DNA from: Dehalococcoidia bacterium
Lineage (GTDB): Bacteria; Chloroflexota; Dehalococcoidia; Lucifugimonadales; UBA3495
Length of the DNA: 64,000 nt
Reading direction: 5' to 3'
Assembly: GCA_963422635.1 (NCBI GenBank)
Contig: OY730415.1
Span: 1,073,231-1,137,230, forward strand
Shown here: piece by piece, positions 1 to 36,583 of the stretch
Layout: every line of letters starts with the position of its first letter
Position numbering within the stretch: the stretch's first letter is position 1
Notes under the pieces: model-generated
The model's input: the letters and a program-made list of their open reading frames with translations, nothing else
What the model was told of the DNA's origin: nothing
The model's database searches: none
Translations under genes and position numbers: made by a program

Positions 1-198
1 ATGCGGGCGGAGACCTTGAAGTTTACGCCCATGGCGATGCTCAGCCGCTCGGTGGCCGGCGCCCGAGGCAATACCCTGATAATCACCCTGCCGGGCAGCC
101 CCAAAGGCGTGGCCGAAACCCTGGAAGTAGTCAAGCCGGTATTGCCTCACGCCCTGGAACTGCTCCGCCGCAAGTCGGTGCAGGAGCATCCGGTTTAG
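1..198 (+). CDS. MogA/MoaB-family molybdenum cofactor biosynthesis protein, C-terminal fragment (5' end outside window)
   Basis: ORF is open to the window edge. NTLIITLPGSPKGVAETLE resembles the conserved LPGSPK segment of MoaB/MogA proteins. Confidence 0.6.
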   Translation: MRAETLKFTPMAMLSRSVAGARGNTLIITLPGSPKGVAETLEVVKPVLPHALELLRRKSVQEHPV

Positions 199-2004: not shown

Positions 2005-3141
2005 TTAAAGGAACTTCACCTTCTCATAGCTGCCGCCAACGATGGCTTGGGCGTCCATCTTGAACCAGTCCTCGATGATGGTGGTGTAGATGGAGCGGAA
2101 GTCCATATTGTAGCGAAGATTGCCGCCCTCTTCCTGCTGGCTCGGCTCCAGGGAGGGGTACTCGCCGTAGATGCCGCCCTTAACGTGGTCGCCGATGGCG
2201 AAGGCGATGCCGCCGGCGCCGTGGTCGGTGCCGGAGCCGTTGTCGCCGATGCGCCGACCAAACTCGGTGAACATCAACAGCAGGACGTTATCGTTGGCGT
2301 TGTGGTCTTTCAGGTCGGCCATAAAGGTATCCACGTTGTTGGACACATCCGACCACAGGCCGGAGTGCAAGGATGCCTGGTTAGCGTGGGTATCGAAGCT
2401 GTTATAGGGCGACGTGGTATAGAGAACCCGGCTGCCGAACTCGGCCAGATGGGTCTGGGCGATATTTTTCATGTACTGGCCGACCACCGTGGCCGAATAC
2501 TCCACGTTGGAAGTATATTTGTCCGGGGCGGTCGCCAGGATGTCGGCGCCTTTGAGAGCGTTGGTGCCCGTGCTGTGGATGTAATCCAGGACGGCGCTGC
2601 GCCCGACGGCCGGCGAATACATTCGCCCGAAAACGTCCAACGCCTGGTCCCGCTGGTTCTCCCCTTCGATGCCGGTCAGCAGGCCGTAGGTCTCCAGGTT
2701 GCCCACGGAAGCGACCGGCACGCCATCCATCACCAGGGCGCGGGGCAGGCCGCGACCGAAGTTCACGCCGGTAAGCACGTTCTCCGCTTGGGGGTCCATT
2801 TCCTTGAGCGCTCGGCCCAGCCAGCCTTCGGTGCCAATTTTATCCGGCTCGCAAGTATGCCAGATGTCCATCGAGCGGAAGTGAGAATAGCTGGGGTTGT
2901 CATAGCCCACGCCCAAGAAAATAGCCAGCTTCCCCTCGTCCCAGAACCGCTTCAACGGCCCCATAGTAGGGTGAAAACCCAGCTGGTCGTTAAGGGGGAT
3001 AACCTGGCCTTCGGGAATGCCCAGGTTGGGCCGGTAGTCCCGATACAGCGGGTTGGCATAGGGAATCACGGTGTTCAGGCCGTCATTGCCGCCCGAAAGG
3101 GAAAGAACGGCCAGTACCGGGTCTTTCTGCGTAGAAACCAT
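2005..3141 (-). CDS. DUF1501 family protein (sulfatase/alkaline-phosphatase-like fold), cassette copy 1
   Basis: Motifs LSGGNDGLNT, SHFRSMDIWHT, FDTHANQ and TEFGRR..DNGSGTDHG. Start set at the internal ATG (MVSTQKDP) to avoid overlap with the upstream gene. No Tat or Sec signal. Confidence 0.85.
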   Translation of the reverse strand: MVSTQKDPVLAVLSLSGGNDGLNTVIPYANPLYRDYRPNLGIPEGQVIPLNDQLGFHPTMGPLKRFWDEGKLAIFLGVGYDNPSYSHFRSMDIWHTCEPDKIGTEGWLGRALKEMDPQAENVLTGVNFGRGLPRALVMDGVPVASVGNLETYGLLTGIEGENQRDQALDVFGRMYSPAVGRSAVLDYIHSTGTNALKGADILATAPDKYTSNVEYSATVVGQYMKNIAQTHLAEFGSRVLYTTSPYNSFDTHANQASLHSGLWSDVSNNVDTFMADLKDHNANDNVLLLMFTEFGRRIGDNGSGTDHGAGGIAFAIGDHVKGGIYGEYPSLEPSQQEEGGNLRYNMDFRSIYTTIIEDWFKMDAQAIVGGSYEKVKFL

Positions 3142-3163
3142 GTTCTCTTCTCCTGCAACTAGA

Positions 3164-4588
3164 TTACTCGAACTGGAACTCTGCCGTGGCGGCAATCATC
3201 TGGAACATTTCGCCGGTGCGGCGGGCAAATTCGGCCCGTTCCGCCGCGCTGCTGTGACTCAAGTCGCCGCCCTTTACTGCGTGGGAGCGCAACTCGTTCA
3301 GGGTGTCGTCGGTAACAGTCAGCGGGCCGGTCAAGTCCAGGCAGCCATCAACAAACTGGTCTGGCGTCAAGGTGTCGCCCCGGGCCATCAGCCGGTTAAC
3401 CAGCGACTGCACCCCCGGAAGCTCGGTGTTGCCTAGCAGGTCGGAGGCGAAGTTGATGCGCTCCACCAGCGTGCCGCTGTCAATCCATTCGCGGCCGGTA
3501 TGCCAGCCTTCCACCGTCGGGGGGTTCATCAGGTCCATACCCATATACTTGGGCTCTTGGGAAAGTTCAAACAGGCCCGGCTGGATTTCCCGATGTTCGT
3601 TCACCATCCGCAGCGTGCTAATTACCATCTCTGCCGGGTTCTTAACCTTGGCGTAACGGACTCCCTCCGCCTTGAAGAAATCGGACTTGAACAGAACCCG
3701 CAGCATGGCGCTGATCTCGTAACCGGAGTCGAAGTAGGCTTGCTCCAGCGCTTCGATGGCGGCTACATCCGCCGGCGGGGTCAGCCGCCAAGCGGGAACC
3801 TGCACGTCGTCGGCGACGAAGTAGTTATAGAGGTGGCGGGCCAGGAAGCGGGCGGTGGCCGGTTGTTTGACGATAATGTTCAGCACGTCGTCGCCATTAA
3901 AGTTGCCGGTCTCGCCCAAGAAGGTCTTTTCGCTGTCGTCGTGGTCGGCCGGGTCAAACCGGAAAGACCAGGGGCTGCGGCCATAGGGGAAGGGCGGGTA
4001 GGGCGGCGCGATGTTCCAGCCGGTGAAGGCCCGGGCGCAAGCCTTAACGTCATCCTCGGAATAGTTAAACTCCTCGTCCTTGCCCACGCCCAGGGAGAAC
4101 AGTTCCAGCAGCTCCCGGCCATAGTTCTCGTTCAGGGCCTCCTTGTGGCTCTCGCTGTTGTCCAGGTAATAAACCATCGCCGGGCTGGTAGAAAGGCGAT
4201 AAAGCAGGTTGCGGAAGTTGCCCATGCCGTGATCCCTGAACATCTGAATCATCCGGCCCATTTCCTGTCCGCTGTCAATCTTGCTGTGGCCGGCGCAGAA
4301 AATCATGTGCCAGAAGAGAGCCATCTTTTCCTGCAACTGGCGGGGATTGTTAATCATTCGATAGACCCACGCCTGAATGTTGGTCTCGATGGCCGCCGCC
4401 TCGTGATAGGCCGGCTGATAGCGCATCAGCAGGTCATCCTCAATGCCGGGGTTGTCCAGAGGGTTCAGCAATTCTTCCACTACGTTGTCATACCCTTGGG
4501 CGACTTTGGCTTCAATCTCGTCGCGGCTTGCCCCGAAGCCGGCGCGCCGCAGCAAGTGAGCCATCAATGCGACATCTTGGTCAGCCAT
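3164..4588 (-). CDS. DUF1800 family protein, cassette copy 1
   Basis: N-terminus MADQDVALMAHLLRRAGFGA and ...PPTVEGWHTG..WI.SGTL..R are typical of DUF1800. It lies immediately upstream of DUF1501, the usual pairing. Confidence 0.85.
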   Translation of the reverse strand: MADQDVALMAHLLRRAGFGASRDEIEAKVAQGYDNVVEELLNPLDNPGIEDDLLMRYQPAYHEAAAIETNIQAWVYRMINNPRQLQEKMALFWHMIFCAGHSKIDSGQEMGRMIQMFRDHGMGNFRNLLYRLSTSPAMVYYLDNSESHKEALNENYGRELLELFSLGVGKDEEFNYSEDDVKACARAFTGWNIAPPYPPFPYGRSPWSFRFDPADHDDSEKTFLGETGNFNGDDVLNIIVKQPATARFLARHLYNYFVADDVQVPAWRLTPPADVAAIEALEQAYFDSGYEISAMLRVLFKSDFFKAEGVRYAKVKNPAEMVISTLRMVNEHREIQPGLFELSQEPKYMGMDLMNPPTVEGWHTGREWIDSGTLVERINFASDLLGNTELPGVQSLVNRLMARGDTLTPDQFVDGCLDLTGPLTVTDDTLNELRSHAVKGGDLSHSSAAERAEFARRTGEMFQMIAATAEFQFE

Positions 4589-4883: not shown

Positions 4884-6169
4884 TTATTTGCCCCACACCG
4901 ACATTGAATGGTCCTGGGATATGTATTCACCGTCCTTGCCCCGAGGATAGGCGAGGCCCAAAGAGACCGCGCCCGGGGCGCAGCCGACAATAGTTACCGT
5001 ATCGCCGGGGCCGAGAAGTCGGCCCTCCTCATCGCCCCCGGGACACCGGTCAAAAGCGATATTGCCAGCATCCGAAAGCCAGGGGGCGTGGTTGACAATC
5101 ACCCGAACGCCCGGCGGGTTTGGCAGTAGGCTGTTCAACGTAAAAACCCGGGATTGTCCCACCTTCAGCGCGGACGGCGGCGGCGTCAGGCTGACTCGAA
5201 AAGGACGGGGTTCCCCCACTTCGATGCGGAAGGGTCGCACCTGTTTAGCGCCCGCGTACAGGTCGGCCCATGCCTCGCCTGGGGAACAGCGTGACTGCAT
5301 CCATCATATAAGCTCAACTCCCGTCGGCCCATGCCTCGCCTGGGGAACAGGCGGTAATGGTTACCATGTCCCCATTATGGTAAGTCCCCCCTTCCCCGAT
5401 GGCCCCGGGGCAATTACCGAGGGACAAGTTGCCCGCATCCCCCGGGCGATTGAGGCTCAAACGCGCTCCCGGCGGGTCGGGGAGGTTAGTATGTATGATA
5501 AACTCCTTCGATTGTCCAACTTCGGGGTACCATATAGGCCGCCATTTGGAGTCGCAATCGGGTGGGCAGGGCGCCGATAGGGGGACCGGCGGCCCTTCAA
5601 TGCTTGTAACCCCCTCTTGCCTAGACAACTCGCCCAACAAAGCGACGGGCGCATAGAGGCGTAAGCTGCCGGTGAGCCAATAATCCCCGGCGGGATATTC
5701 ATATATTCCCTGGGGATAAAGCTTTTTCCCTTCCAGCCATTCAACCACCTTTTCCAGGTTGCTGGTCAGGTAAACTTTGACATTTTGATGGGCCGGTTCC
5801 AGATAAGCGTCCTCAGCCAAACGAGGATAGTACCCCTGCTCCAGCGCCAACACTAGATATTCCAGGTCAGTATCCAGGCCGGGATAAGTAGGCGTAGGTT
5901 TGGGGTAATCAGTAAAACAGTCCTCTTCGAACCGAAAAGAGCCATCTTCCAGCTTCCTTACCCCCCCGATGCATGTAGTAGGAAGCGGAGTTGAAGCAAC
6001 GACCGGCGTTTCGGCCAAAGATGCGCCGCCTTTGAGGACGCCGCTGGGTTGGATGGACTGCCGGGCCGCAACTAATCGCCGCCAACAGCAGCGCGGACGG
6101 CAAGAGTAGTAAGGGAAGAAGGTAGCGTAATAGCCCGCCGTTTTCTTTTAACCTGAGGATTGAAAGCAT
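4884..6169 (-). pseudogene. lipoprotein gene with two similar Cys-containing modules, disrupted twice
   Basis: A signal peptide with lipobox (MLSILRL...LLAAISCG) is in one frame (start 6169/6184). The body (5314-6018) is in the +1 frame. The body is then cut by a 61-nt insertion at 5290-5350, leaving the tail as ORF 4884-5300. Confidence 0.6.
5262..5350 (-). repeat. repeat-insert-repeat unit S1 (28-nt direct repeat x2 around a 33-nt insert)
   Basis: Identical 28-mers at 5262-5289 and 5323-5350 (minus strand CTGTTCCCCAGGCGAGGCATGGGCCGAC). Period 61. Confidence 0.95.
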
Positions 6170-6329
6170 GCCTTCCCCCACCATGCCTTTACATTTAGAG
6201 TCTATGTTAGCTTACGCCTTGTCATAGCGTCGAGTTAGCATCGGGAGGGCTATTTTTCACCGGTACCAGCGGGGCAATTGCGTTCGGCGCCCTGCCCGCA
6301 AGGCGGAATTAAACTGCTCGCCCGGCAAA

Positions 6330-6416
6330 ACGTCGCCCATCGCCGGGGGGTTAGACTCTGGAGCTATCGCCAACTAGTCGAACTACTATACGTCGCCCAT
6401 CGCCGGGGGTTAGATC
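6330..6416 (-). repeat. repeat-insert-repeat unit S5 (imperfect: 26/25-nt repeat around a 34-nt insert)
   Basis: ACGTCGCCCATCGCCGGGGG(G)TTAGA at 6330-6355 and 6390-6414. The copies differ by one G in the G-run. Intergenic. Confidence 0.7.
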
Positions 6417-6562
6417 CTTCACTGCTTCAGGAGGGGCCGAGGCGCAGGTCAGGGCGACAGCCAGCTTTCCGGGCGGCTGTTGTTTTAGCCGCCCACTCCC
6501 CTGCCGGGACGCCTTCTGGCGCCGCATCTTCCTGTCCCGTCAACTGGGCGGCGGCCCACGCC

Positions 6563-7117: not shown

Positions 7118-7422
7118 AACGTTTTCTCCCGGTGAATGAATGATTTGCTGAGGGGTTAGACTGGCTGCTTATGATTCATCATAGGCTGGGGTAATCCGGG
7201 TTGGCAAGGGTTGGGCTAGGATTGGGTCGGAGGCGCGCCCTGCGACTTTTCAAGGAACATCCCGCGAAAATGAACGGCGCCCCACCGTCTTTCCATCTTT
7301 CGCCGGAAAGACGGTGGGGCGGGCAAACTAACCCGGCCTACTTCGGCCAACCCGGTTTGCTTTCCCTGAGCGGCTTTGCTACACTCTGGCTAGTTGCCCA
7401 CTTTCTTAATTGGGGGTTCCTG

Positions 7423-15321: not shown

Positions 15322-16452
15322 TTAGATGAAGTCGAACTGCTCGAAGCTGCCGTTAATCAGGGGCTTGGCGTCTAACCCCATCCACCTTTCCAGAAGCGTG
15401 GCGTAGATGCTGCGGAAGTCGTTGTTGAAGTGCAGGTCGCCTTCCAGCAACTTGTCCGCCGCCAAGGACGGATATTCGCCGTACAGCCCGCCCTTGACCG
15501 CATCGCCGATGACAAAGGCCATGCCGCCGGAGCCGTGGTCGGTGCCGGAGCCGTTGTCGTGAACCCGCCGGCCGAACTCGGTGAACACCAGCAGCGTTAC
15601 GTTGTCGCTGGCGTTATGCTCCTTCAGGTCGTCGTAAAAGTCGCCAACGGCTTGGGAAGTATTCGCCCACAGCTGGGCGTGGGCGGCCAGTTCCCCGGCA
15701 TGCGTATCGAAACTATTGTAGGGCGCCGTGGTATAGAGAACCCGCGCGCCGAACCCGGCCAAGTGCGTCTGGGCGATGTTTCGCATATATTGTCCTACCG
15801 TGTCCGAACCGTACTCCACGGAAGAGGAATACATCTCCGGCGCCGTGCTGAGAATGTCGGCGCCCTTCAGTGCGTCCATACCGGTCTGGGACAGGTAATC
15901 CATCACGCCGCCCCGGCCCATCGCCGGGGCGTAGATGCGAGAGAAGACATCCAAAGCTTCTACCCGCTGGTCGTCGCCGATTCCGGTCAGCACCCCGTAG
16001 GTTGCCAAGTTGCCCACCGAGGCCACCGGCACGCCGGTCAGGGCCAAGGCGCGGGGCAGGCCCCGGCCAAAGTTTACGCCGGTCAACACGTTTTCGGCCT
16101 CCGGGTCTAGCTCCTTGATAACCCGGCCCAGCCAGCCCTCCGTCCCCACCTTGTCCGGTTCGCAGGTATGCCAGATGTCCATGGAGCGGAAATGCGAGCG
16201 GTTGGGGTTGGGATAGCCCACTCCCTGGATAATCGCCAGCTTGCCCTCGTCATAGAGCTTTTTCATCGGCCCCATATTGGGGTTGAGGCCGACGTAATCG
16301 TTGATTTTGAGCGTCTGCTCCTCGGGGATGCGCACCGAAGGGCGGTTGTCGGCATACAGCGGGTCGCCATAAGGCACTACGGTGTTCAGCGCATCGTTTC
16401 CCCCGGAGAGTTGCAACACCACCAGTACCGGGTCTTTCTTGATTGAAGTCAT
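15322..16452 (-). CDS. DUF1501 family protein (cassette copy 2)
   Basis: 376-aa paralogue of 2005-3141 with the same motifs (SHFRSMDIWHT, TEFGRRVHDNGSGTDHG). Confidence 0.85.
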   Translation of the reverse strand: MTSIKKDPVLVVLQLSGGNDALNTVVPYGDPLYADNRPSVRIPEEQTLKINDYVGLNPNMGPMKKLYDEGKLAIIQGVGYPNPNRSHFRSMDIWHTCEPDKVGTEGWLGRVIKELDPEAENVLTGVNFGRGLPRALALTGVPVASVGNLATYGVLTGIGDDQRVEALDVFSRIYAPAMGRGGVMDYLSQTGMDALKGADILSTAPEMYSSSVEYGSDTVGQYMRNIAQTHLAGFGARVLYTTAPYNSFDTHAGELAAHAQLWANTSQAVGDFYDDLKEHNASDNVTLLVFTEFGRRVHDNGSGTDHGSGGMAFVIGDAVKGGLYGEYPSLAADKLLEGDLHFNNDFRSIYATLLERWMGLDAKPLINGSFEQFDFI

Positions 16453-16677
16453 AACCTTTCCTCCTCTACCTCATGAAACCGGCAGTCCCCTCGGGCCGAG
16501 CCGGTTGAACCATCAACGGAAACCCTTCGACCCGCTCTGTTTAACCGCCCTGGTTGAACGGAGCGATGGGCGCTTGAAGGTAACGGAAGGCTCCTCGCTA
16601 GCCTCTGGGGGGCGACGTTGTCCGCCAAGTACGCCGTCAACCCGCCGCAAGGCTACCCGCTAGCGGGGGCTCGACCC

Positions 16678-18126
16678 TTAAGCGAACTGGTACTCCTGGG
16701 TGGACACAATCAACTGAAGCGTCTGGCCTACCCGCTGGGAAAAGTCCGCGGCGCTGGGTCGCAGCTCGCCGCCGCGACCCAGGTGCTCCACCAGTTGGGC
16801 GCGGGTCGCCTCGGCCAGTTCATAGGCGCCCAGCAATTCCAGGCAACGATCCACCAAGTCCTCGGCGGATACGGCGGCGGAACCATTGGAACCGTTGGAA
16901 CCATTGGAACCGTTGGAACCACTATCGGAACTGACCCGTTCCACGATGTGGCGCACCCCGGGAAGCTCCAGGTTGCCCAACTGGTCGGCGGCGAAGTTGA
17001 TGCGCTCCACCAAGGTTCCGCTGTCAATCCACTCGCCGCCGGTATGCCAGCCCTCCACCGTGGGGGGATTCATCAGGTCCTGGCCCATATAGCGGATGGT
17101 CATTGCCAAGTTATGCAGGCCGGGCTTGGGGGCGGTGAAGTCCTGTACCAGCCGCATAGTTCCGACTACCGCCTCCGCCGGACTCTTGACCTTGGCAAAG
17201 CGGGCATTCTTGAAGAAGTCGGAGTTGAAGAGAAGCCGCAGCATAGAGCCGATGTTATAGCCGGAGCGGAAGTATTCCTCCTCCAGCATCCGGATGGCTT
17301 CTAGGTCTCGGGGCGGGGTGTTCTGCCAGGCGGGAACCTGCGGCTCGTCGGCCACGAAGAAGTTATACAAGTGGCGGGCGACGAATCGAGCGGTGGCTGG
17401 CCGCTTCACGATAATGTCGATTACGTCAGCGCCGTCCCAGCGGCCGGTTTCGCCCAGAAAGGTTTTGTCGGCGTCGTCATGGTCGGCCTGGTTGTAAACG
17501 AAGTTGGCTTCATAACGGCCATAGGGATAACGGGGAATGGCATTGGTGATAGTCCAGCCGGTAAAGGCTCGGGCGCATTCCTTAACGTCGTCCTCCGAAT
17601 AGTTGGCCGCGCCGTCCATCCCCACGCCCATGGAGAAGAGTTCCAGCAGTTCCCGCCCCCAGTTTTCGTTGATGGCGTCCCGGCGACTCATACAGTTGTC
17701 CAGGTAAAACACCATCGACGGGTCGGCGGCCAAACCCAGTAGCAGGTCGCGAAAGCTGCCCAATCCCTGATTGCGGAACATATCCACCTGAAGCTTTATC
17801 TGCCGTCCGTGTTCGCACTTGGAATTGCCGGTGCAGAAGATGCCGTGCCAGAAGAGGGCTATTTTCTCCTCCAGGGGCCGGCGAGTGTTAATCATCCGAT
17901 AGGTCCAGTAAGCTTGATTGACCTCCAGAGCATTCAGCTCCTTCCAGTCAATAAAGCGGCGCTCCAGAATATCGGTTTCCAGGTTGGGTTGGTTTTCCGG
18001 GTGCAGCAAATCCTCTACCGTGGCCGCATACCCTTGGGCGACCTTCTGCTCCAGTTCTTGATAGGTAGCGCCGAAACCGGCCCGGCGCATCAGGTGAGCC
18101 ATCAATGCGATGTCCTTGTTCGCCAT
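16678..18126 (-). CDS. DUF1800 family protein (cassette copy 2)
   Basis: 482-aa paralogue of 3164-4588 (MANKDIALMAHLMRRAGFGA...). Carries an extra GSNGSNGSNGSNGS insert. Confidence 0.85.
   Translation of the reverse strand: MANKDIALMAHLMRRAGFGATYQELEQKVAQGYAATVEDLLHPENQPNLETDILERRFIDWKELNALEVNQAYWTYRMINTRRPLEEKIALFWHGIFCTGNSKCEHGRQIKLQVDMFRNQGLGSFRDLLLGLAADPSMVFYLDNCMSRRDAINENWGRELLELFSMGVGMDGAANYSEDDVKECARAFTGWTITNAIPRYPYGRYEANFVYNQADHDDADKTFLGETGRWDGADVIDIIVKRPATARFVARHLYNFFVADEPQVPAWQNTPPRDLEAIRMLEEEYFRSGYNIGSMLRLLFNSDFFKNARFAKVKSPAEAVVGTMRLVQDFTAPKPGLHNLAMTIRYMGQDLMNPPTVEGWHTGGEWIDSGTLVERINFAADQLGNLELPGVRHIVERVSSDSGSNGSNGSNGSNGSAAVSAEDLVDRCLELLGAYELAEATRAQLVEHLGRGGELRPSAADFSQRVGQTLQLIVSTQEYQFA
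16879..16920. repeat. 9-bp in-frame tandem repeat (GGAACCRTT x about 4.7) encoding (GSN)n
   Basis: Read directly. Lies inside the DUF1800 copy 2 gene and is absent from copy 1. Confidence 0.9.
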
Positions 18127-33946: not shown

Positions 33947-35411
33947 CTAAAGTCTGCCGATGAAATCCCGGTATTCCCGGTTGCCGAAATTTACCCGAAC
34001 CCATTCGGCCCATTTCGCCGCTTTGCTCTGGGTCAACTTGGCTCTCGCCTCATCTTTCATCCACTTGACGCCGGCCTTCTTATTTTCCGCCATCAGACCA
34101 ATCAAGGTGAAGTGATTTCGTTTCCTCCCGTTGCAAGGACGGCAGAGCAAGATGCGGTTGAGGATATGGTTGGCGCCCCGGCCAGACTTGGGGGTGATAT
34201 GGTCTAACTCCATAAACTCCCGCTCCAACTCCCGCCCGCAGCCGGCGCAGACTACCCCATCCGTCGCAGCTTGAGCGGCGGACAGGATGCGGGTTATATC
34301 AGCTCGGGACAGTTTCTCCCACGGTTCCGGCTCCCGCTGCGCCTTCAACTTCAAATCGGGAACTGGGGAAGTTTCAGCGTAATCAGTGCGCTCCGGCGGG
34401 TCAGTCAGCTTGACCACTTCCGGCGGGATCTCGGTTAACAACTGGCGACTATCGTTGAGCCGCTGCGCCACCAGGTCATAAGCGCCCTCCCAAACGTCGA
34501 TGCCAATCCACCGGCGGCCCAGCCGTTCCGCCGCCACCGGGGTAGTGGCGCAGCCGCAGAAGGGGTCAAGAACCATATCACCAGGGTTGCTGCTGGCCTG
34601 GATGATGCGCTCGTACAGGGCCAGCGGTTTTTGGGTGGGGTAGCCGGTACGTTCAATGTCCGTGGAGCCTATGTAAGAGATGTCCCATACATCTCTCATA
34701 TTGACCAAGTTGTAAACCCCTTCTTTGTCTTCAAAGAATTCTGCATTGCCACTGCCATAGTTGATTATGCCAGGTCTGCGGCTTTTTGACTTGGTGTACG
34801 CTTTCTCTTTCTGGAGGTTGAAGGCGTAGTGACTGTTCAATGAGTAAAACAGTATCGTATCGTGCTTTCGGGAGAAGTTACTCCTGCTTGCGCCGCCAGT
34901 CTTGTATGACCACACAACCTCATTCCGGAAGTTCTTGCGGCCAAAAATCCCGTCCAGCAGACACTTAACGTAGGCATGGGCGGTATGGTCGATGTGGAGA
35001 TAAAGGCTGCCAGTGTCCTTCAGTACTCGGTGGCACTCCAGTAGGCGGACGCCCAACCAGCAGAGGAAGGCGGCCATATCCTCGCCGGAAGCCGCCCGGG
35101 CGGCTTCGATTACCGCCCAAACTGGGGGCCAATCGTCCTGGATGGCGTCCACCCATTCCTGGTGCACATCCCGATCCCAACGCCAGCGGTCTTCGAACCG
35201 GGCGCCCTTTGCCAGGCTGTTGGGGGTGGCGTGAAAATCCCTGCTCTTGTTAAAGGGAGGGTCGGTGGCGATGAGGTCAATGGTGGCGGAGTTTATACCC
35301 CTTAAAACGGCGAGGTTGTCGCAATGGTATAAAGTTCGGTTGGCCGGTTGGCCCGGCTTTCCGGCTTTCCGCTTTCCGCTTTCCGCTTTCCGCTACGTAA
35401 TCATTCAACAT
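33947..35411 (-). CDS. N4/N6 DNA methyltransferase fused to a C-terminal HNH nuclease domain; ATG (35411) currently out of frame with the body
   Basis: The body frame (open from 35392) encodes ...IDLIATDPPFN (motif IV), DPFCGCATT (motif I) and CAGCG...DHITPK...N...LLCRPCNGRK (HNH). It has no ATG/GTG/TTG upstream of DPPF. The only ATG with an RBS-like AGG..GGA lies in the frame reached by removing one 7-nt repeat unit. Confidence 0.8.
35357..35392 (-). repeat. heptanucleotide simple-sequence repeat (coding strand CGGAAAG x4 plus one CCGGAAAG)
   Basis: Plus strand CTTTCCGG CTTTCCG x4. Lies between the ATG and the DPPF motif of the methyltransferase. Confidence 0.95.
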
Positions 35412-35683
35412 ATCAAATTTCCTGACCTATTTCAACTAACCCGGCTCGGCCGGCGCATTGTCGGGTTAGTCGAATGGCAGTTGCGTAAATCTGCCGCCGA
35501 GTTAGTTTACTGAGGAACGGAAACCGGGTCAATCGCCTTCCGTCATTCTCCTTCCGCTCTTTCCGTCATCATCTTTGAGGCAGCAATGACGGAGAAGCTG
35601 GGCATAACGCCGCGGGCCTACAACCCCGGCCCTGACATATCAGGAGAAGTGGAGTATAATGAACCGCAAGCGAGCAAAGGGAT

Positions 35684-36583
35684 ATGACCTCCATTAACGA
35701 CATTACCGATTTTGTGCGGATTATCCGCGAACAGCCCGAATGGGCGGATACGATTCGCGGCATACTACTGGGACAGGAACTCCTGTCCTTGCCTGGCCGG
35801 TTCGCCGCTTTTGTTGAACTGACCGAGCAAAACTTCCGGTTAATTCACGAACGGCTGGGCCGACTGGAAGAAGATGTGGCGGCCCTCAAGGAAGATGTAT
35901 CCGGCCTCAAAGAAGATGTGGCGGCCCTCAAGGAAGATGTATCCGGCCTCAAAGAAGATGTGGCGGCCCTCAAGGAAGATGTATCCGGCCTCAAAGAAGA
36001 TGTGGCGGCCCTCAAAGAAGATGTATCCGGCCTCAAAGAAGATGTGGCGGCCCTCAAGGAAGATGTATCTGGCCTCAAAGCTGGTTTCAGCCGGCTCGAA
36101 AACAAACTCGATACCAGCGTGAACCAAATCAACGGAAGACTGGACAATGCATTCGGTATGAACTACGAAGCCAAAGTAGAGAAGAACATTCGTAGCCTCG
36201 CCGGGCAGCAAATCAAACTGCGCCGCGTTCAAATTCAAAAGGGAAGAGCTTTCACTGACCTGAACGCCGATATGGAAGAGCAGCTGAACTTGGCAGAAGA
36301 GAGCGGACGCATCTCCCCCGAGGAATATAACGATATTCTCTTGCTGGACCTGATTATTACCGGCAGACGGCGGGGTGAAGACTCGGCCAGGTGGGTCGGG
36401 GCTGAAATATCTATCACCATTGGCGATAACGACATCAACCGGGCCGTCCGACGCTCCCGGCTGCTGGCCGTGGGCCTCGACCAGTCGGTGATACCCGCCG
36501 TAATCGGTTCTCATATTGACGAAACCCGGAGCGCGCTGGCCGAAGCCAACGACGTTGTCGTAATGCTCCTCCCCGACGAATAA
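35684..36583 (+). CDS. coiled-coil repeat protein with a C-terminal domain of unknown function (possible PD-(D/E)xK-like core)
   Basis: 299-aa ORF with five EDVAALKEDVSGLK repeats. The C-terminal LLLDLIITG...GAEISITIGDNDINRAVRRS pattern is tentatively nuclease-like. Confidence 0.7.
   Translation: MTSINDITDFVRIIREQPEWADTIRGILLGQELLSLPGRFAAFVELTEQNFRLIHERLGRLEEDVAALKEDVSGLKEDVAALKEDVSGLKEDVAALKEDVSGLKEDVAALKEDVSGLKEDVAALKEDVSGLKAGFSRLENKLDTSVNQINGRLDNAFGMNYEAKVEKNIRSLAGQQIKLRRVQIQKGRAFTDLNADMEEQLNLAEESGRISPEEYNDILLLDLIITGRRRGEDSARWVGAEISITIGDNDINRAVRRSRLLAVGLDQSVIPAVIGSHIDETRSALAEANDVVVMLLPDE
35870..36079 (+). repeat. 42-bp in-frame tandem repeat x5 (14 aa, two heptads per unit)
   Basis: Three units are identical and two differ by one synonymous base each. 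Confidence 0.95.

Follow-up and report, generated by a model that had tools for sequence, protein, structure and literature searches.

How does a gene come to be cut in two by a 33-nt insert lying between perfect copies of a 28-bp segment? This question is raised by a 64-kb stretch of contig OY730415.1 (the whole stretch that was analysed, 64,000 nt, is referred to as the window) from an uncultivated Dehalococcoidia bacterium, in which an insertion, here called E1, separates the two parts of a gene on the minus strand. The explanation that we favor, with a probability of roughly 75%, is that E1 is an off-target ('non-canonical' or 'neo-CRISPR') integration of a spacer by a type I-E-like Cas1-Cas2, the integrase of CRISPR adaptation. 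To insert a prespacer, Cas1-Cas2 makes two staggered attacks, one on each strand, at positions that lie a repeat length from each other, and the repair that follows duplicates the repeat. When the complex acts on a site outside a CRISPR array, it is the local sequence that is duplicated instead.

A 33-nt insert between two 28-bp copies interrupts a single gene

The window contains two copies of the 28-mer GTCGGCCCATGCCTCGCCTGGGGAACAG (plus strand), one at 5262-5289 and the other at 5323-5350, with 100% identity between them and a period of 61 nt. Matches of this kind appeared in 0 of 100 shuffled sequences, and no third copy exists in the 64-kb window even when up to 3 mismatches are tolerated; nor was the 28-mer found in the JGI metagenomes. 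The duplication is exactly 28 bp long, the outer neighbouring bases of the two copies being different, and the segment enclosed between the copies (5290-5322) is 33 nt long and unique. Read in the sense of the gene, the upstream copy (5323-5350, minus strand; CTGTTCCCCAGGCGAGGCATGGGCCGAC) precedes the spacer-like insert (5290-5322, minus strand; GGGAGTTGAGCTTATATGATGGATGCAGTCACG), with a GC content of 0.48 against 0.60 for the window, and this in turn precedes the downstream copy (5262-5289, minus strand), the second copy of the 28-bp target.

The insert contains both the TGA (5316-5314) that closes the open reading frame (ORF) 5314-6018 and the ATG (5300-5298) that starts ORF 4884-5300. The N-terminal piece of the split gene (5314-6018, minus strand; 234 aa) stops two codons into the insert, and the C-terminal piece (4884-5300, minus strand; 138 aa) begins at the ATG within it and carries the second of two Cys-containing modules. 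The two 28-mer copies are in one codon phase, each being translated to CSPGEAWAD in its own ORF, and removal of 61 nt, that is of one copy and the insert, yields a single open frame of 400 codons (...ITACSPGEAWADLYAGAKQVRPF...); the reconstructed empty site reads ...ACCGCCTGTTCCCCAGGCGAGGCATGGGCCGACCTGTAC.... Within the fused protein the two Cys-containing modules are 45% identical (E=2e-17). A preliminary description of this DNA had pointed out the identical 28-mers with 33 nt between them, the origin of the TGA and the ATG in the insert, the common codon phase, the exact rejoining of the frame by a 61-nt deletion and the likeness of the two modules, and on each of these points our analysis bears it out.

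Its designation of the locus as a lipoprotein gene is borne out only in part. A signal-peptide sequence with a lipobox-like Cys (...LLPLLLLPSALLLAAISCG...) does exist at 5909-6184 on the minus strand, where it overlaps the start of the split gene body, but it is encoded in another frame (ORF 5909-6184) than that body. The out-of-frame signal peptide suggests a second lesion in the split gene, a frameshift, and the gene would then be a pseudogene in decay. A BLASTP comparison of the signal-peptide ORF with an orthologue was uninformative.

Could E1 simply be a tandem duplication, or the product of replication slippage, in a repetitive gene? The protein does consist of two similar modules, and true tandem repeats are found elsewhere in the window, a period-60 case at 63382 being one of them. 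However, a tandem duplication predicts the order R-X-R-X, whereas the sequence past the second copy of the 28-mer is unrelated to the insert, and identity ends exactly at the borders of the 28-mer. Moreover, the 28-mer is confined to module 1 of the split protein, and the insert has no counterpart in the rest of the gene or in its orthologues. We therefore regard this origin of E1 as extremely unlikely.

The uninterrupted gene is the ancestral state

When 5.8 billion proteins were searched with the fused protein, only three relatives came up besides the window's own fragment (P0002-P0004, of 316-387 aa, with 36-40% identity over 81-88% of the fused protein). Among GTDB genomes, neither the split protein nor its family gave a match, and exact look-ups of three proteins of the window yielded no record. 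All three cross the junction unbroken as single proteins (...ITIAACAVGTASVELF...KAVWKAGRDYGIKV... vs ...VTITACSPGEAWADLY...AKQV...RPFRIEV), and two of these orthologues are continuous genes of 1,164 nt on independent ENA metagenome scaffolds. Since distant orthologues are single uninterrupted genes, the insertion in the window is derived. The preliminary description had taken the interruption for an insertion footprint rather than a natural gene boundary, and had named a two-ORF layout shared with distant orthologues as the observation that would speak against it; each of the three relatives has one ORF across the junction. Protein and gene comparisons thus support the view that the split of the gene is a derived insertion.

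Further events of the same geometry

Other duplications in the window resemble E1. When short-range direct repeats were sought throughout its length (threshold of 22 or more matches in 28, spacings of 40-99), three duplications appeared at a period of 60, three at a period of 61, and two in total over the other 58 spacings. Only periods 60 and 61 are enriched, and chance is excluded as the origin of the E1 duplication; lowering the match threshold brought no additional cases at periods 60-61 in the window. Four of these duplications are clean, exact events: E1 at 5262 (28+33), A at 62950 (28+33), C at 63630 (28+32) and D at 63711 (28+33). The duplicated segment measures exactly 28 bp at E1 and C, whereas at A and D one base beyond the 28 bp is ambiguous.

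Event A (62950-63038, minus strand) consists of copies at 62950-62977 and 63011-63038, with an ambiguous 29th base, around a 33-nt insert at 62978-63010 whose exact core (62979-63010) has a GC content of 0.38. Event A breaks no ORF because its duplicated segment includes the stop codon of ORF 63028-63216 (minus strand). Event C (63630-63717, minus strand), which reads GGGCGCCCCGCGGAACGTGGGGGAGGAT, has copies at 63630-63657 and 63690-63717 and a 32-nt insert at 63658-63689, and constitutes an in-frame insertion in the last codons of a small ORF (63547-63930, minus strand). The same small ORF, which is of doubtful reality and has a low GC content at third codon positions (GC3), is frameshifted in its last codons by event D (63711-63799, plus strand; copies at 63711-63738 and 63772-63799, 29th base ambiguous; 33-nt insert at 63739-63771). 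Event D faces the other way from event C and shares 7-8 nt with its second copy.

For A, C and D an empty-site comparison found no alignable relatives, as synteny, anchored on an ABC transporter gene, ends at about 61.7 kb. This synteny, shared with 27 related Dehalococcoidia genomes, spans 58.4-61.7 kb. Beyond it comes lineage-specific DNA (~61700-64000) with a pair of MaoC-like genes, the second event cluster and, at ~62820-62862, a strong hairpin resembling a terminator.

Two further period-60 duplications are of a different standing. An intergenic one upstream of the split gene (6330-6409, within 6312-6419) has a 20-nt exact core (ACGTCGCCCATCGCCGGGGG), about 26 of 28 matches and one indel, and it is ambiguous whether it is an older, decayed integration event or a diverged tandem duplication. 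The duplication at 63382 was rejected as an integration event, since its 'insert' matches the downstream flank, as in an ordinary coding tandem repeat; the segment 63375-63496 is a period-60 coding repeat in a small ORF at 63292-63495 on the minus strand (...ISDEHGTDTS...ISDEYDREHGTDTS...).

Events of the 28+33 type are absent from 455 kb and 554 kb of related Dehalococcoidia DNA, in which the same scan turned up only coding repeats and arrays resembling repetitive extragenic palindromic (REP) sequences. These palindromic REP-like arrays of related genomes (...GTCATTCCCGCGTAAGCGGGAATCC...; L083 at 1521-1690, 7185-7250 and 15848; L081 at 9813) have spacings of 60-68 nt and could be mistaken for CRISPR-like periodicity.

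The four inserts (33, 33, 32 and 33 nt) are unrelated: alignments among them and with their flanks are all at chance level. Three of the four (GC contents of 0.48, 0.38 and 0.47) are well below the window mean of 0.60. A transposon family or other shared element was rejected, as the four inserts have no common sequence. It is true that a transposon, or a miniature inverted-repeat transposable element (MITE), with its target-site duplication would likewise give a gene-disrupting insert flanked by a direct duplication of the target. Here, however, the duplication is 28 bp, and the 'element', of only 32-33 nt, lacks terminal inverted repeats and is a different sequence at each site. Target-site duplications of transposons are typically short, far under 28 bp. 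Thus, because the inserts are unrelated and the duplication is too long for a transposon target site, E1 is not a transposon footprint. The preliminary description, which named no mechanism, had suggested a look at mobile-element databases, whereas the evidence leads elsewhere.

The target sites carry type I-E ruler motifs in register

What kind of enzyme duplicates 28 bp and adds 32-33 nt? The sum of 28 bp and 33 nt, 61, is one repeat-spacer unit of a type I-E CRISPR array. In Escherichia coli two rulers determine that the type I-E repeat measures 28 bp (Goren et al., 2016; PMC5039180): spacer insertion takes place 16 nt past the end of a CCCCGCG motif (positions 6-12) in the first inverted repeat (IR1) and 8 nt past the end of a GCGGG motif (positions 16-20) in the second (IR2). 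Such an anchor is present in register in all four events. IR1 is matched at 7 of 7 positions in event C (CCCCGCG at positions 6-12), at 6 of 7 in event D (CCCCACG at positions 6-12, plus strand) and at 5 of 7, with the CCCC intact, in E1 (CCCCAGG at repeat positions 6-12, 5345-5339), while event A (minus strand) has IR2 at 5 of 5 positions, inside an 11-nt match (GCCAGCGGGGA) to positions 12-22 of the E. coli repeat. In E1, positions 2-9 (TGTTCCCC) are the same as in the E. coli type I-E repeat.

Anchors of this quality occur in 0.95% (strict) to 1.6% (loose) of the 28-mers of the window, counting either orientation. The joint probability of the anchors is ~5e-8, and random sets of four sites reproduced the pattern in 0 of 2,000,000 draws; these values are optimistic, since the thresholds were picked after the sequences had been viewed, but the anchor positions themselves are fixed by the literature (PMC5039180) and not by the analyst. 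Over the whole repeat, the identity of the four sites to the E. coli type I-E repeat is 14, 14, 14 and 11 of 28, against a null expectation of 8.5±2.2 (combined p ~1e-3), and the type I-F repeat, which also has 28 nt and served as a control, gave no signal (p=0.53). The E. coli repeat used as archetype was confirmed by its presence, with a CRISPR annotation, in 4,233 genomes of that species. Anchors and archetype both come from E. coli, whereas the presumed enzyme belongs to a distant phylum; the repeats described in a paper on Dehalococcoides mccartyi are 32 nt long and look like type I-C.

The sequence of events at E1 would then be as follows. A type I-E-like Cas1-Cas2, loaded with a prespacer of ~33 nt, would dock on a stretch of the gene that by chance is repeat-like, where positions 2-9 read TGTTCCCC and positions 6-9 provide the CCCC core of the IR1 anchor. 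Its two strand-transfer attacks, staggered by 28 bp and followed by gap repair, would duplicate the 28-bp target and leave a repeat-spacer-repeat product of 28+33+28. The net gain of 61 nt would shift the frame and import a stop codon, giving the 234-aa and 138-aa ORFs, and the same enzyme would have acted on at least three other repeat-like sites in the window. The sequence of the C/D region before insertion (...ATCCTCCCCCACGTTCCGCGGGGCGCCCCCACGGGCATTCAG...) has several anchor-like motifs and therefore looks like a natural hot spot.

Probable off-target sites rather than CRISPR arrays

An alternative would be that the units are genuine, functional mini-CRISPR arrays of two repeats and one spacer, for example regulatory or nascent ones, that are under selection. 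Event C comes closest to this, as it combines the perfect IR1 anchor with a 7-bp hairpin positioned as in the type I-E repeat, and the events are clustered, with C adjoining D. However, such an I-E-like (Cas6e-type) hairpin is possible in only one of the four pseudo-repeats, that of C, and most of the units are therefore unlikely to be processed into CRISPR RNA. Furthermore, the repeat differs from unit to unit and is derived from local, partly coding sequence, and E1 destroys a gene that is intact in the orthologues. The Rfam CRISPR-DR families contain no match to the pseudo-repeats, even at E<=10, and a search of GTDB representative genomes for the core of the C repeat as an array repeat gave 18 hits, approximately the number expected by chance, none of which is an array. 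A functional role as mini-arrays is thus very unlikely.

The units do share with a canonical array the repeat-spacer-repeat periodicity of 60-61 nt. Unlike such an array, each site in the window has two copies, with a repeat of its own that is ordinary local sequence, and the units lack a leader, cas neighbours and a match to a known repeat family. At no site does a conserved repeat recur at regular spacing as many as three times. Judged by their sequences, the pseudo-repeats appear to be off-target sites and not canonical repeats.

Since only event C can form a Cas6e-type hairpin, off-target integration at E1 is most likely collateral damage of CRISPR adaptation rather than the making of a functional element. 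Because the flanking copies are perfect direct repeats, a precise deletion between them would restore the gene, and each insertion might act as a reversible gene switch, since recombination between its 28-bp repeats can take it out precisely.

Enzyme, spacer source and the case against spacer integration

Several observations, besides the choice of anchor thresholds mentioned above, weigh against off-target spacer integration. Neither a cas gene nor a canonical array is found in the window or in the related loci examined, and a tblastn search for Cas1 gave no match in the window and 1.37 Mb of related loci. No protospacer for any of the inserts was found in IMG/VR, in phage and plasmid collections (by BLAST) or in the JGI metagenomes. 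The first base of the insert is inconsistent (G, T, G, T), and no base derived from a protospacer adjacent motif is evident. The density of four events in 64 kb is far above that expected from laboratory off-target rates. Finally, the four events are all exact, with no clear sign of decay in any of them.

The lack of cas genes and protospacers in these searches is in keeping with another, non-Cas integrase or repair pathway. It would make staggered cuts 28 bp apart and add a filler of ~32 nt, be it an unknown mobile oligonucleotide system or an enzyme akin to a Cas1-solo or a casposase. To our knowledge, no such non-Cas system with a 28-bp duplication and a 32-nt insert has been described, and casposases produce target duplications of ~14-15 bp. 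Moreover, the fit to both E. coli anchor positions, and to the type I-E but not the type I-F repeat, is specific to a type I-E-type Cas1-Cas2. We consider such a pathway improbable.

If a type I-E-like Cas1-Cas2 is responsible, the source genome would be expected to carry cas genes, and the inserts would presumably be of foreign origin; a search for their source elsewhere in the window found none. The closest relatives of the source Dehalococcoidia, which is SAR202-like, are metagenome-assembled genomes from long reads and sponge-associated bins. Sponge SAR202 genomes carry CRISPR-Cas (PMC6306507), and type I-E is present in the class Dehalococcoidia, namely in D. mccartyi (PMC8516407). D. mccartyi BAV1 is reported to have a lone repeat-spacer unit of ~100 bp and no cas genes (PMC4635342), and this is perhaps a similar orphan unit from within the class.

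The exactness of all four events raises the question of whether the 61-nt insertions exist in real DNA or are an artefact of assembly or consensus building. The four duplications are 100% exact, with no clearly decayed case among them, and the source is a metagenome-assembled genome, as an artefact would have it. On the other hand, we know of no assembler error that creates a 28-bp duplication around an unrelated segment of 32-33 nt, and an artefact would not pick sites with type I-E ruler anchors in register. Nor do the inserts match the flanks or one another, the contig is 2.64 Mb long, the nearest relatives are long-read assemblies, and the other genes of the window are intact. An artefact is thus an improbable explanation. 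Its variant in which haplotypes have been collapsed was rejected, the inserts being unrelated to each other and to their flanks. While an artefact would fit the lack of decayed copies, so would a recent burst of off-target spacer integration or a rapid loss of its products, for example by recombination between the 28-bp repeats.

Precedents and implications

Off-target integration has been produced experimentally. In E. coli over-expressing Cas1-Cas2, it occurs at repeat-like sites and is accompanied by a duplication of repeat length, according to papers that cite the original work (Nivala 2018, as cited in PMC7054753, PMC11788318 and bioRxiv 148544). As presented in these citing papers, the neo-CRISPR units of Nivala, Shipman and Church (2018) resemble the events in the window in having an insert of spacer length, a 28-bp duplication, repeat-like sites outside arrays and a 'repeat' of its own at each site. 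In contrast to the over-expression used there, the window belongs to the consensus genome of an uncultivated Dehalococcoidia bacterium and has four events in 64 kb, one of them gene-disrupting. The two-ruler model (PMC5039180) provides a second precedent: the boundaries in the window lie 16 nt past a CCCCGCG-like motif or 8 nt past GCGGG, and 28 bp are duplicated. Yet the anchors of that model were defined on the canonical E. coli repeat, whereas each site in the window has one good anchor and the enzyme presumed to have used it is from a distant phylum.

In vitro, Cas1-Cas2 of Pyrococcus furiosus carries out off-target full-site integration at sites whose size and positionally conserved bases are like those of the repeat (PMC6698737). 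Its preferred off-target site is 43% identical to its own repeat (PMC6698737), which is comparable to the 39-50% identity of the sites in the window to the type I-E archetype. The P. furiosus system differs in its repeat length of 30 bp, in its archaeal origin and in that the work was done in vitro with plasmids (PMC6698737). For natural off-target integration, the text of bioRxiv 148544 that addresses it speaks only of 'circumstantial evidence' in two species.

The mechanism as such is thus already known. Clean natural cases are however scarce, especially gene-disrupting ones and several of them together, in a phylum remote from E. coli in which the ruler rule of that species still applies. 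The window bears on how often off-target integration happens in nature, and on whether it damages genes or seeds new arrays: it supplies four clean natural events, one of them gene-disrupting, whose targets follow the E. coli two-ruler rule. It is conceivable, although we hold this only tentatively, that the genome has an unusually promiscuous type I-E adaptation module that scatters single-spacer neo-CRISPR units (~1 per 16 kb here) and knocks out genes. Were this true, it would provide direct natural evidence for a genomic cost of CRISPR adaptation and for the de novo birth of arrays. For annotation, the events serve as a warning that split genes, like 'questionable two-repeat CRISPRs', can be scars left by adaptation.

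Other features of the window

Other tandem repeats lie elsewhere in the window. Between the ABC transporter gene and its neighbour there is a perfect 71-nt tandem repeat (59392-59560; 2.4 copies), which is a recent local expansion, because related genomes have only ~100 nt at this place. A 64-nt tandem repeat (21498-21689; 2.5 copies, 98% identical) lies directly upstream of a tRNA gene (21696-21769); TTGACA-like boxes in its unit give it the look of a promoter region that has been duplicated.

A DNA methyltransferase fused to an HNH nuclease domain is encoded at 33947-35167 (minus strand). It adjoins an ORF at 35684-36583 (plus strand) that contains a 21/42-nt coding repeat (35868-36080) and has weak matches, probably driven by coiled coils, to the defence proteins LmuB and JetC. 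The region 33947-36583 could represent a small defence island or a mobile one. A DDE transposase gene (55890-57161) is located near a tRNA gene (55211-55285), with a small ORF of low GC3 (55355-55837) between them, and 55211-57161 is likely an insertion-sequence or integration hot spot. Genes for DUF1800 proteins occur in two paralogous pairs, at 2005-4588 and 15322-18126, in each of which the DUF1800 ORF overlaps or nearly abuts a partner of ~376-396 aa; Pfam confirms the DUF1800 assignment for 3164-4588 only.

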